Positions 4,713 through 13,336 of a stretch of DNA of 18,562 nt are shown here, piece by piece (positions within the stretch are counted from its first letter, which is position 1; each line of letters opens with the position of its first letter). The notes beneath the pieces were generated by a model that saw only the letters and a program-made list of their open reading frames with translations, was not told the origin of the DNA and made no database searches. A program made the position numbers and the translations under genes. The DNA comes from a virus (taxonomy: Duplodnaviria; Heunggongvirae; Uroviricota; Caudoviricetes): IMG/VR virus record IMGVR_UViG_3300030021_000030, positions 1 through 18,562 of that record; one strand, 5' to 3'.

Positions 4713-5194
4713 GACAGCAGCCCTCCCACCGTTTTACTGATATCGCTTAAGGCAGACGTTGCCGTATCCTGCAAATTATTCAGCTGCGCACTGAGATCAC
4801 CGAACATATCGGACAGGGATTCATCCACCCGTTTGAGCGACAGGGTGAACTCAATCCGGCGCGGCATACCATCGCGGAAAAACTCCGTTTTAGTCTGATT
4901 CAGTCCCTCAATCACATACATGCCGTAAATCGTGCCGCTGCCTTCAATCAGGGGCCATGCTTTTCCCTGTTCTGCCATCTGCTCCAGAGCCAGCAACGAC
5001 AGCCTGCCGCCCGTTATCTCTGGCATAAGAACACCAGAAAGCGTCAGCATGTCGTTGTCCGGTCCCAGAAACTGCGTGGACGGACGTCGGTTGACCCGGC
5101 TGTTTGCCGCATGTCGCCAGCTGCGTTGATACTGCAGTTCCTGATACGGCACAGTGCGCAGCATAAACACGTACAATCCCAGCACCATCATCAT
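4709..5194 (-). CDS. U: P2 gpU-like tail protein
   Basis: 161-aa ORF in the P2 position between T and D; 4-nt ATGA overlaps with both neighbours. Confidence 0.85.
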   Translation of the reverse strand: MMMVLGLYVFMLRTVPYQELQYQRSWRHAANSRVNRRPSTQFLGPDNDMLTLSGVLMPEITGGRLSLLALEQMAEQGKAWPLIEGSGTIYGMYVIEGLNQTKTEFFRDGMPRRIEFTLSLKRVDESLSDMFGDLSAQLNNLQDTATSALSDISKTVGGLLS

Positions 5195-10552: not shown

Positions 10553-11119
10553 TCAGGGGGATTCATTGCTCTTATTTGCCGGAAATTTTCTATAAATGGT
10601 AGAAACGCCTACATCAAAAATCAGTGCAATACGCTGTCTTGATTCTCCGGCCTCGAGTAAACGCCCAATCTGTGCCCACTGTTCGGTGGTCAACTTAGGA
10701 CGGCGTCCACCTACTCTGCCTTTGGCACGAGCTGCAGCCAGCCCTGCCATGGTACGTTCAACTATCAGTTCGCGTTCCATTTCAGCCATGGCACCCATGA
10801 CATGAAAAAAGAAACGGCCCATTGGGGTGCTGGTATCAATACTGTCAGTCAGACTTCGGAAATTCACGCCACGCTGACGCAACTCTTCTATCAGCGTAAC
10901 AAGATGCCGCATACTGCGCCCCAACCTGTCCAGCTTCCAGACAACCAGAGTGTCTCCTGCCGATAGTGTCCTGAGCAGTTTTTTAAGCCCCGGTCTGTCG
11001 GACTTAGTGCCACTGATTTTATCCTCAAAAATCCGCTCACATCCCGCGCAGTTCAGTGCATTACGTTGCAAATCGGTGTTCTGGTCATTTGTTGACACGC
11101 GTACATAGCCAATAAGCAT
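10553..11119 (-). CDS. Serine recombinase, DNA invertase of the Gin/Hin/Pin/Cin family
   Basis: Translation from the internal Met: MLIGYVRVSTNDQNTDLQ...VVWKLDRLGRSM...FFFHVMGAMAEMERELIVERT...C-terminal HTH. The catalytic Ser is in the YVRVSTNDQ motif. GGGA Shine-Dalgarno lies upstream of the ATG at 11119. Confidence 0.85.
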   Translation of the reverse strand: MLIGYVRVSTNDQNTDLQRNALNCAGCERIFEDKISGTKSDRPGLKKLLRTLSAGDTLVVWKLDRLGRSMRHLVTLIEELRQRGVNFRSLTDSIDTSTPMGRFFFHVMGAMAEMERELIVERTMAGLAAARAKGRVGGRRPKLTTEQWAQIGRLLEAGESRQRIALIFDVGVSTIYRKFPANKSNESP

Positions 11120-11174
11120 GATCAATCCCCTGAATAAAAACCGTGGATGATGCCAGTTAGCCATTATCTCTGCA

Positions 11175-11200
11175 TTTTCATAAACGTTGGTTTGGGAGAA
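11175..11200. repeat. gix/hix-like 26-bp invertase crossover site (invertase-proximal)
   Basis: TTTTCATAAACGTTGGTTTGGGAGAA fits the Hin/Gin site consensus TTnTCnnAAACCnnGGTTTnnGAnAA and is 20/26 identical to the reverse complement of the site at 12275-12300. Confidence 0.6.
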
Positions 11201-11545
11201 GCGGCGAAAAGGGGTGTGGGCACAGGAGATAATCAGATACCGGATATGGGAGCATTCGCTTCTGGTTCGGGATGGTTCAGGCTACCAGGTGGATATATTG
11301 TTCAGTTTGGCACTTTTGCAGGAAACACGACCCGCTTTATCAGTGGACACTTCCCTATACCATTCCCTAATCAGCCGATGGTTTCAGTCAGTGTTATGTC
11401 TGATGCCGTTCAGTCAGACCCGTCGATTCCTGCCCCGCAGGTTTTGTCTGTAAATTTTGAACATATCAGTAATTCAGCGTGGCGTGTGGCAACCAGTGAT
11501 ATCTCACAGCAATACAGATTCAGTTATATTTCGATAGGACGGTAG
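11201..11545 (+). CDS. Promoterless alternative tail-fibre C-terminal segment (Sv'-like), expressed only after inversion
   Basis: Open frame runs through the gix-like site and encodes ...GWFRLPGGYIVQFGT..., parallel to the current H C-terminus ...GYFELPGGLLLQWGH... There is no plausible independent start; the ORF-track Met at 11147 lies inside the invertase gene region. Confidence 0.6.
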   Translation, partial: AAKRGVGTGDNQIPDMGAFASGSGWFRLPGGYIVQFGTFAGNTTRFISGHFPIPFPNQPMVSVSVMSDAVQSDPSIPAPQVLSVNFEHISNSAWRVATSDISQQYRFSYISIGR

Positions 11546-11547
11546 AA

Positions 11548-11973
11548 ATGCAGAAATATATTTTCAGTGCCGATAAAAATGCGTTTTTCCCTGTGGAGCT
11601 TAAAATCGCTTATCAGGAATCCGGCGAATGGCCCGATGATGGAATCGAAATTGACGACACTGTTGCCGCCGAATTTATGAAGGAAGCACCAGAAGGAAAA
11701 TACAGAGGTGTCATCGACGGAATGCCAGCATGGATTGATATTCCACCACCAACTCATGAGGAACAAATTGCTGCAGCCGAATTGGAAAAGCAGCAATTGA
11801 TTAATCAGGTCAACGAATACATAAACAGTAAGCAGTGGCCTGGCAAATCGGTGCTTGGACGCCTGAAAGATGATGAATTAACGCAGTACAATTTATGGCT
11901 GGATTATCTTGATGCGCTGGAAGCGGTGGACGTATCCAGCGCTCCAGATATTGTTTGGCCCTCCTCAACCTAA
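11548..11973 (+). CDS. Tail fibre assembly chaperone (Tfa/gpG/Mu U family)
   Basis: 141-aa ORF immediately after the Sv' segment (3-nt gap) with the conserved C-terminal Tfa-like region ...QYNLWLDYLDALEAV...; opposite strand to H. Confidence 0.75.
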   Translation: MQKYIFSADKNAFFPVELKIAYQESGEWPDDGIEIDDTVAAEFMKEAPEGKYRGVIDGMPAWIDIPPPTHEEQIAAAELEKQQLINQVNEYINSKQWPGKSVLGRLKDDELTQYNLWLDYLDALEAVDVSSAPDIVWPSST

Positions 11974-12001
11974 ATAAAAAGCCGCTCTACGCGGCTTTCT
12001 C

Positions 12002-13336
12002 TTACATCCCGAGTGCAAAATACGTATAGCTGTCAATATTGTTTACCGTGCCGTTTCCATTCCATCCATAAAGGCTAAAGCTAGTTAAGGTATAATTAGA
12101 TGACGTCACATACCGACCATCAGTTGTGATTTTATGCGGCAGTACAATGAACGGAGTGACGTTAAACGACTTCTTAAACTGTATAATGGCACTTGACGCA
12201 TGAATCGAGCCGTGCCCCCATTGCAGCAGCAATCCTCCCGGTAATTCAAAGTACCCATCAGCCTCCAGTAACCGCTCTCCAAAACCAAGGTATGTGAGAA
12301 GACCAGTTACATCCTTTCCACTCAAATTAGTCAGCGTATTGTCCAGCGGTTGTTTACCTGCCAGTGCATTAAGCATTGTCGTGGCAAAGTTCGGGTCATT
12401 CCCCAGCGCCGCCGCCAGTTCGTTCAGTGTATCCAGTGCCGCAGGTGCAGAACCCACCATTGCCGCAATCGCCGATTTCACAAATGCCGTGGTGGCAATT
12501 TGTGTATTGTTGACCGACTGTGCCGCAGTAGGTGCGGTTGGCGTTCCGGTGAGTGCCGGACTCGACAGCGGCGCTTTCAGTGCCAGCGCATTGTTAATGG
12601 TGGTACTGAATTTCGGATCATTGTTAATGGCTGCGGCTATTTCTTTCAGCGTGTCCAGCGTGGCTGGCGCACCATTAATAAGAGCCGTCAGAGCCGCCTG
12701 AACAAACTCGGTGGTCGCAATCTGCGTGGTGTTATTCCCTGCTGCTGGCGTTGGCGCTTTGGGTGTCCCGGTAAACGTCGGACTTTCTTTGGGTGCATAC
12801 TGTGAATGCGGGTCCGGTGCGGCAAGATGTTTTGCCATCAGGTCATCCACGTACACCTTCAACTCCAGTGCTTTGTCATCCACATACTTGCGGGTTGCCA
12901 GCACTACAGCAGGGTCGATTTTCAGGGTGATATTGTCCGTGCTGCTGGTTATCAGCACCATGCGCACGGTCTGGGTGCGCCCGCTGCCTTCAGCCAGTTG
13001 CGGCTTATAGCTTTCCGGGCAGTTGCCCACGGCAATCAATGCCCCGGACTCATCAAACAGGCCCACTTCACGTATCCACCAACCACCCTCGTTTTCAGGG
13101 ATCACCTGTTCAGCAATAATCTGGCTGCTGTTCTGCGGGTCGATATAAAGCATATTCAGCGCAGCCCGGCGTTTCTCATTTACCAGTGCCGTCTGCTTTG
13201 CGTCCGGCGTTGGCAATACTCCGCCGCCATCGCCCACCGCCATATGAGTAATTTTTAGCGGCACACCGAGCGCGGCGGCGCTGGCAAGTTTCGCCGCGCC
13301 AATATCCGTTAGCAGGGTATAAAATTTTGTGCTCAT
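12002..13336 (-). CDS. H: Tail fibre protein (gpH-like): constant N-terminal part plus the currently fused variable C-terminal tip
   Basis: 444-aa ORF with the conserved P2/Mu/P1 tail-fibre N-terminus (MSTKFYTLLTDIGAAKLASAAALG...) and repeated TQIATTEFV / TQIATTAFV collar motifs. The last ~90 codons lie inside the invertible segment. Confidence 0.9.
   Translation of the reverse strand: MSTKFYTLLTDIGAAKLASAAALGVPLKITHMAVGDGGGVLPTPDAKQTALVNEKRRAALNMLYIDPQNSSQIIAEQVIPENEGGWWIREVGLFDESGALIAVGNCPESYKPQLAEGSGRTQTVRMVLITSSTDNITLKIDPAVVLATRKYVDDKALELKVYVDDLMAKHLAAPDPHSQYAPKESPTFTGTPKAPTPAAGNNTTQIATTEFVQAALTALINGAPATLDTLKEIAAAINNDPKFSTTINNALALKAPLSSPALTGTPTAPTAAQSVNNTQIATTAFVKSAIAAMVGSAPAALDTLNELAAALGNDPNFATTMLNALAGKQPLDNTLTNLSGKDVTGLLTYLGFGERLLEADGYFELPGGLLLQWGHGSIHASSAIIQFKKSFNVTPFIVLPHKITTDGRYVTSSNYTLTSFSLYGWNGNGTVNNIDSYTYFALGM
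12275..12300. repeat. gix/hix-like 26-bp invertase crossover site inside H
   Basis: CTCTCCAAAACCAAGGTATGTGAGAA; its reverse complement TTCTCACATACCTTGGTTTTGGAGAG encodes LTYLGFGE of H and matches the site at 11175-11200 in inverted orientation. Confidence 0.6.

Follow-up and report, generated by a model that had tools for sequence, protein, structure and literature searches.

What becomes of a phage tail-fibre tip when an inversion switch offers two tips and a chaperone gene for only one of them? In the classical switches of Mu, P1 and e14 the arrangement is symmetric, each variable tip being followed by its own tail-fibre assembly (Tfa) gene (U and U'; TfaE and TfaP). The question is raised by an 18,562-nt stretch of DNA from a Caudoviricetes virus (IMG/VR record IMGVR_UViG_3300030021_000030, analysed over its full length and called the window below), in which the P2-like tail-fibre gene H currently ends in a tip, here tip A, that has no chaperone gene of its own, and the only tfa gene lies behind a silent alternative, tip B. 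An earlier note on this DNA had left three options: that the current tip folds without a dedicated chaperone, that the chaperone is supplied in trans, or that this orientation yields non-infective fibres. The first is best supported by the comparisons reported here, the second is weakened and the third is argued against. Tip A is probably Tfa-independent, and the switch would thus toggle H between a tip that comes with a Tfa (B) and one that does without (A). This reading is based on the association of genes across genomes and on the precedent of gp53 of Acinetobacter phage AP22.

An inversion switch with a single tfa gene

The window is identical (100% over the 1.3 kb compared) to part of the chromosome of Escherichia coli strain LZYWN_4. 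The prophage in that strain is P2-like and carries the full annotated set of P2 genes without pseudogene flags, and is therefore apparently complete. The minus strand of the window carries the late genes J, I and H as well as the invertase, sheath and tube genes. The features of the switch are as follows.

10553..11119, minus strand: serine DNA invertase of the Gin/Cin/Pin/Hin family, 188 amino acids (aa); Resolvase 6e-53, HTH_7 1.8e-15; outside the segment
11175..11200: crossover site on the invertase side, TTTTCATAAACGTTGGTTTGGGAGAA; one arm of the inverted repeat and an inversion breakpoint in L004, L005 and L015
11189..11545, plus strand: silent alternative tip B, 118 codons and a stop; Gp53-like_C 3.9e-9
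11548..11973, plus strand: tfa, 141 aa, the sole tail-fibre assembly gene; Caudo_TAP 1e-33, phrog_188 1e-56
11976..12000: hairpin separating the stop codons of tfa and H, a candidate two-way terminator (terminator scan and folding)
12002..12287, minus strand: tip A, the expressed variable C-terminus of H, ~94 aa and a stop, without a chaperone gene
12275..12300: crossover site inside H, CTCTCCAAAACCAAGGTATGTGAGAA, encoding ...TYLGFGE...; the other arm of the inverted repeat and an inversion breakpoint
12288..13336, minus strand: constant part of the tail-fibre protein H, P2 gpH-like; Phage_tail_fib 5.9e-65

The complete H gene runs from 13336 to 12002 on the minus strand and encodes 444 aa, combining a P2-type N-terminal fibre domain with a C-terminal Gp53-like_C domain; its constant part is 97-98% identical among relatives that have different tips. 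A site search between 10900 and 12600 recovered a single pair of cix/pix-type sites. The two 26-bp sites form an imperfect inverted repeat (20 of 26 positions identical, central dinucleotide AA/TT) and bound an invertible segment of ~1.1 kb (window 11175-12300). Given the positions of these sites, the expressed tip must extend over 12002-12287; the layout of tips and tfa described earlier stands, with the end of the tip moved from 12274 to 12287. Likewise, the 3' ends of H and tfa are convergent, as had been claimed, but the gap between them (11973 to 12002) is 28 bp and not 29. At its other end, tfa starts 2 nt past the stop codon of tip B, and its product matches Pfam family PF02413 (Caudo_TAP) with 116.7 bits against a curated cut-off of 22.1.

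Naturally inverted copies of the segment exist. Relative to both flanks, the interior 11175-12291 (98% identity) is flipped at L004, L005 and L015, which stem from the E. coli strains APEC O18 and H2 and from an IMG/VR contig; the breakpoints coincide with the two sites, and H ends in tip B, followed by tfa. In APEC O18 and H2 the reading frame from H into tip B stays open, for an H protein of 468 aa. The segment is thus a Gin/Cin/Pin-type invertible tail-fibre switch: a serine invertase adjoins it, paired inverted sites of ~26 bp delimit it, one of them within the fibre gene, and both orientations occur. The Mu G segment (Gin), the P1 C segment (Cin) and the e14 P segment (Pin) share the serine invertase beside the segment and the paired 26-bp inverted sites inside the fibre gene, and inversion in all of them exchanges the C-terminal tip and hence the host range; unlike in those three, a Tfa accompanies only one of the two tips here. 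Shufflons of the R64 type consist of several segments with at least three sites and are inverted by the tyrosine recombinase Rci. They also alter the C-terminus of an adhesin by site-specific inversion, but with one pair of sites and a serine-type recombinase the present system is not one of them, and the label "shufflon" that it had been given is a misnomer. Carotovoricin Er is likewise reported to have an invertible fibre segment, but it was set aside as a precedent, the literature consulted being silent on a chaperone gene in that segment. The likeness to e14 extends to the sites, the core of the left site (TTGGTTTGGGAGAAG) agreeing at 15 of 16 bases with the P-segment repeat as printed in PMC12529663. 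Constant flipping of loci of this kind has been described for P2-like prophages of E. coli (PMC4272514).

The claim that the window holds one tfa only, co-oriented with the silent tip B, was borne out: seven diverse Tfa queries run with tblastn and a hidden Markov model (HMM) of Tfa, each applied to the whole window, both returned 11548-11973 alone, and the layout of open reading frames (ORFs) agrees. Small ORFs on the minus strand, in which a second tfa might have been overlooked, were searched as well. Those at 11524-11796 and 11810-11968 (ORFs of 90, 52 and 33 aa were checked) gave no Pfam match; they lie antisense to tfa, show no conservation of frame, length or sequence at other tip A loci, and were rejected as a hidden chaperone. 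No second, co-oriented tfa was therefore found in the window. Across the tip A loci compared, no conserved ORF was found downstream of tip A on its own strand, and H has no match to Peptidase_S74, the self-cleaving C-terminal domain that acts as an intramolecular chaperone. A sigma-70 promoter scan found three sites where 3.0 are expected in shuffled sequence, and so gave no evidence for a tfa promoter active in both orientations, in a scan crude enough to miss even the invertase's own promoter.

In place of a chaperone gene, the stop codon of tip A is followed by the hairpin. On the minus strand it comprises 10 pairs and then a T run in the terminator scan; its predicted folding energy is -16 kcal/mol (z -4.1) on the minus strand and -12.3 kcal/mol (z -5.1) on the plus strand, lower than in all 200 of 200 shuffled sequences on each strand. 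The order from tip A onwards is its stop codon leading into TAAG(A/G)GAAAGCCGC, a 5-nt loop, GCGGCTTTTT, and then the convergent 3' end of tfa. The stem GAAAGCCGC/GCGGCTTTTT is kept in 13 of 13 aligned tip A loci, and the loop is variable.

The closest phage records, Klebsiella phage KP12 and Escherichia phage Cartapus (both P2-like, Peduoviridae), are 95-99% identical to the window in the constant part of H, the invertase and the sheath, and KP12 also carries the same module of tip B and tfa. Unlike the window, both have a second module in which another tip is accompanied by its own Tfa (200 or 139 aa), and their segments are thereby symmetric. The window has a candidate two-way terminator where segments of this type have an overlap of tfa 3' ends; in two-Tfa relatives the convergent ends overlap by 29 bp without a hairpin between them (L001 2960-2988; L002 2931-2959).

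Tip A across genomes

We compared tip A loci from the window and from about 20 enterobacterial entries in all (L003-L009, L013-L022 and L026-L029 besides the window). The same order was found in every one of them, namely tip A stop, hairpin, convergent tfa 3' end, and in none does a co-oriented tfa lie next to tip A. The partner across the hairpin, by contrast with this constancy, varies: its Tfa belongs to at least five types (141, 194, 191, 190 and 136 aa), and the partner tip has a Gp53-like_C domain at some loci and a Collar domain at others. The backbones into which tip A is built differ too, including P2-like fibres, Mu/e14-like fibres of 189-191 aa that follow baseplate genes of the Mu gp48/YmfQ type, and a lambdoid side fibre beside lom. 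The family, 74-99% identical at the amino-acid level, occurs in E. coli, Salmonella, Klebsiella, Kluyvera, Enterobacter and Citrobacter. A pattern scan of species-representative genomes found no relatives of tip A, though the protein database has many.

Considering that one layout is maintained with many partners, half-site, head domain and terminator together make tip A a self-contained module. Whatever its partner, this module never brings or acquires a chaperone gene at the loci examined. Judged from the sequences compared, the missing chaperone is a stable property of tip A and no accident of this locus.

The module is also maintained as a coding sequence. Among 12 distinct copies, the pairwise ratio of nonsynonymous to synonymous substitutions (dN/dS) is 0.09-0.42, with dS up to ~1, from which we conclude that tip A is under purifying selection. 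Tip A and its hairpin were found in 31 of 5426 complete E. coli genomes, being ON (fused to a fibre gene) in ~17 and OFF (silent) in ~14; the call depended on whether the match ran past the crossover site and was cross-checked against annotation at six loci. At three loci the invertase is deleted or truncated and tip A is locked ON (L018, 5892-6480; L021, 2442-2549; L007, 2398-2520). At a further locus with a deleted or truncated invertase, tip A is locked OFF (L014, 3875-4001).

Two further groups of loci concern the fate of the chaperone gene. An Enterobacter prophage with a Mu-like baseplate has tip A ON (L026-L029, 4601-5173, minus strand), and the convergent tfa of 191 aa is interrupted by one in-frame stop at ~4967-4969; apart from this codon it is 99.5% identical to the intact gene of L014. 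In Serratia, more distant relatives of tip A (38-48% identity) form the C-terminus of a fibre of 190 aa, and neither an invertase nor a Tfa lies within 4 kb of them.

Unrelated N-terminal parts of fibres, at least six in number, are moreover found fused to tip A, and the fusion point is in each case precisely the crossover site (12275-12300; the LGFG(E/D)RLLEA junction in A2). As the fusion point is always the same, the site may double as a junction for the exchange of modules between phages.

Folding of tip A and the alternatives to its proposed chaperone independence

Tip A matches Pfam family PF21882 (Gp53-like_C) above the cut-off, and it models as a lectin head of the gp53/R-pyocin type. 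The modelled fold, built from a more diverse alignment, matches 4MTM and has a mean confidence score (predicted local distance difference test, pLDDT) of 79.7, rising to ~90 over the head domain; a first model from a shallow alignment (pLDDT 44) was discarded. A sequence search of the PDB with a tip A profile gave no match. The founding member of Gp53-like_C, gp53 of AP22 (PDB 4MTM), is only 19% identical to tip A in sequence and differs in setting, being a free-standing fibre of a lytic phage outside any inversion switch; expressed alone in E. coli, it forms a trimer. The R1 and R2 pyocin fibres of Pseudomonas aeruginosa (PDB 6CL5, 6CL6, 6CXB) are close structural relatives as well, but are chaperone-dependent and not invertible. 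As the fold occurs in both chaperone-independent and chaperone-dependent fibres, it decides nothing by itself, and we rejected it as a test of chaperone dependence, the two closest solved relatives behaving in opposite ways.

In the mechanism we propose, the invertase would recombine the two 26-bp sites and flip the ~1.1 kb between them, joining the constant part of H to either tip A or tip B. With the present orientation, the late transcript would probably stop at the hairpin just after H, and tfa, antisense to that transcript, would probably be silent, with tip A trimerising without a dedicated Tfa. After inversion, the H-tip B fusion and tfa would be transcribed together and terminated at the same hairpin. 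Both orientations would then give working fibres, and presumably infective particles, of different receptor specificities.

Several observations count against a Tfa-independent tip A. The heads of the R1 and R2 pyocin fibres are insoluble unless their cognate chaperone is co-expressed, and the chaperone co-purifies with them; tip B shares the Gp53-like_C fold and yet carries a Tfa. No tip A particle is known, since blastn and tblastn searches found tip A in 0 of 50,697 phage records. The crude promoter scan leaves room for a promoter of tfa, and several of the tip A loci are near-duplicates and hence not independent observations.

If tip A does need Tfa, the protein would have to come in trans, either from the local tfa, transcribed in both orientations from a promoter of its own within tip B or diverging near the invertase promoter, or from the tfa of another, co-resident prophage. 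We regard this as unlikely. In its favour, heads of the same fold require a chaperone in the R-pyocins, and sources of Tfa are not scarce, most E. coli genomes having several tfa genes (hits of the query in 2322 of 5426 genomes, at up to 10 places in each). Locally, an ORF of 132 aa from the ATG at 11147 traverses the silent tip and stops 2 nt short of tfa, with equivalents annotated in many genomes, and there is a weak sigma-70-like site at 11503-11530. The latter, however, lies too close to tfa for a leader with a ribosome-binding site, and promoter-like sites are no more numerous than in shuffled sequence (3 against 3.0). With tip A ON, late transcripts reading through the hairpin would run antisense to tfa. 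A supply from the partner gene is also hard to reconcile with at least five types of partner Tfa that differ in their N-terminal halves, the half that is said, after North et al. in 2019, to be the part that binds the tip. The Enterobacter lineage keeps tip A ON beside a partner tfa with a nonsense codon, and the Serratia relatives have no Tfa nearby.

It is quite improbable that the orientation with tip A is an "off" or defective state, in which fibres misfold or particles are non-infective and only tip B with tfa is productive. The absence of tip A from the sequenced phage isolates would fit such a state, as would the decayed prophages in which several of the tip A-ON loci lie (L006, L007 and L008). 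A dead end would not be expected to show purifying selection across divergent copies, an intact and confidently modelled head domain and a conserved terminator, nor to turn up in several genera and on three types of tail; about half of the E. coli genomes with tip A have it ON, as does the apparently complete prophage of LZYWN_4. More improbable still, to the point that we give it very little weight, is a recent accident without functional meaning, such as the deletion of a second tfa in this lineage. The symmetric segments of KP12 and Cartapus, whose flanks are 95-99% identical to those of the window, would suggest such a loss, but tip A is unrelated to the tips of these phages, it lacks a Tfa beside every partner cassette, and the same terminator is always present. 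A constant terminator joined to a Tfa-less tip points to replacement of the whole module and not to deletion.

Tip A as a Tfa-independent tip thus remains the reading we prefer. A broader claim, to which we would give an even chance, is that tip A belongs with its relatives to one clade of Gp53-like lectin heads, able to nucleate trimers of long P2-type H shafts without Tfa, with the same shaft needing Tfa when it carries tip B. If this is true, Tfa would serve the tip only and not the shaft, and natural one-Tfa switches would provide matched pairs for dissecting the chaperone dependence of tips.

Other asymmetric switches and neighbouring observations

The earlier premise of one Tfa for each tip is true of Mu, P1 and e14, but cannot be generalised. 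We took 80 invertase loci from species-representative genomes and counted Tfa genes between cix-like repeats automatically, with partial verification; by this approximate count, two Tfa genes lie in the segment at 9-10 loci, one at 7 loci and none at 7 loci. Switches with one or no Tfa are therefore common in Enterobacterales according to this rough census, which corrects the textbook generalisation of one Tfa per tip, two-, one- and no-Tfa switches being about equally frequent. A one-Tfa switch in Siccibacter (L038) leaves a Gp53-like_C head without a Tfa; in one from Mixta (L067), the unaccompanied tip matches Gp53-like_C weakly, below the Pfam cut-off. Two Enterobacter segments contain no Caudo_TAP gene at all (L047, 4233-5923; L070, 4227-5929); their alternative tips are a Peptidase_S74 domain, the intramolecular chaperone, and a Phage_tail_C_2 domain, and the two genomes have them in opposite orientations.

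A published description of the one-Tfa asymmetry was not found in the literature searched, the older subscription literature being outside our reach. We regard the asymmetric switch as a variant of a well-known system, recurrent in genomes and modestly interesting. Its practical side is that the matching chaperone gene must travel with the tip when phages or tailocins are re-targeted (PMC6116203). If a tip of ~94 residues can serve P2-like, Mu-like and lambdoid fibres alike and needs no chaperone, it would be a handy module for engineering. In addition, nature supplies a clean comparison: one H shaft bears either a Tfa tip or a Tfa-less tip, by which an action of Tfa on the tip could be told from one on the fibre as a whole.

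Some smaller observations concern the surroundings of the switch. The ATG at 11147 (plus strand) lies in the leader region of the invertase, outside the segment, and is in frame through the crossover site into whichever tip is silent. The resulting ORF (11147-11545) is the one of 132 aa in the window, and genomes in which tip A is silent have annotated ORFs of 108 aa (MMPVS...) in its place. The analogous stub-plus-tip protein of e14, StfE2, has been reported to block adsorption of phage T2 (PMC12529663). By analogy, the product of the stub and the silent tip might be a lectin head that is free of the fibre and has a separate role, although we consider this the less likely case.

On the opposite strand, the mechanically called ORF of the invertase spans 10553-11164 (203 aa from an ATG at 11164), whereas homologues and RefSeq place the start at 11119 (MLIGYVRVS, 188 aa); the 15 extra codons overlap the leader region beside the crossover site. 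At the tip A locus of E. coli MB51, an additional ORF of 140 aa without a Pfam match (L022, 2026-2448, plus strand) lies between the invertase and a Collar-type partner tip. It might be a third cassette; a third crossover site was not found at that locus. Finally, the LZYWN_4 prophage carries, outside the window, a gene with a DUF262 domain between the portal gene and a dinI-like gene (L110, 29159-30940), and a related DUF262-domain gene adjoins the truncated invertase of strain A27 (L007, 407-2296). These DUF262-domain genes may be accessory (cargo) genes of the prophages.

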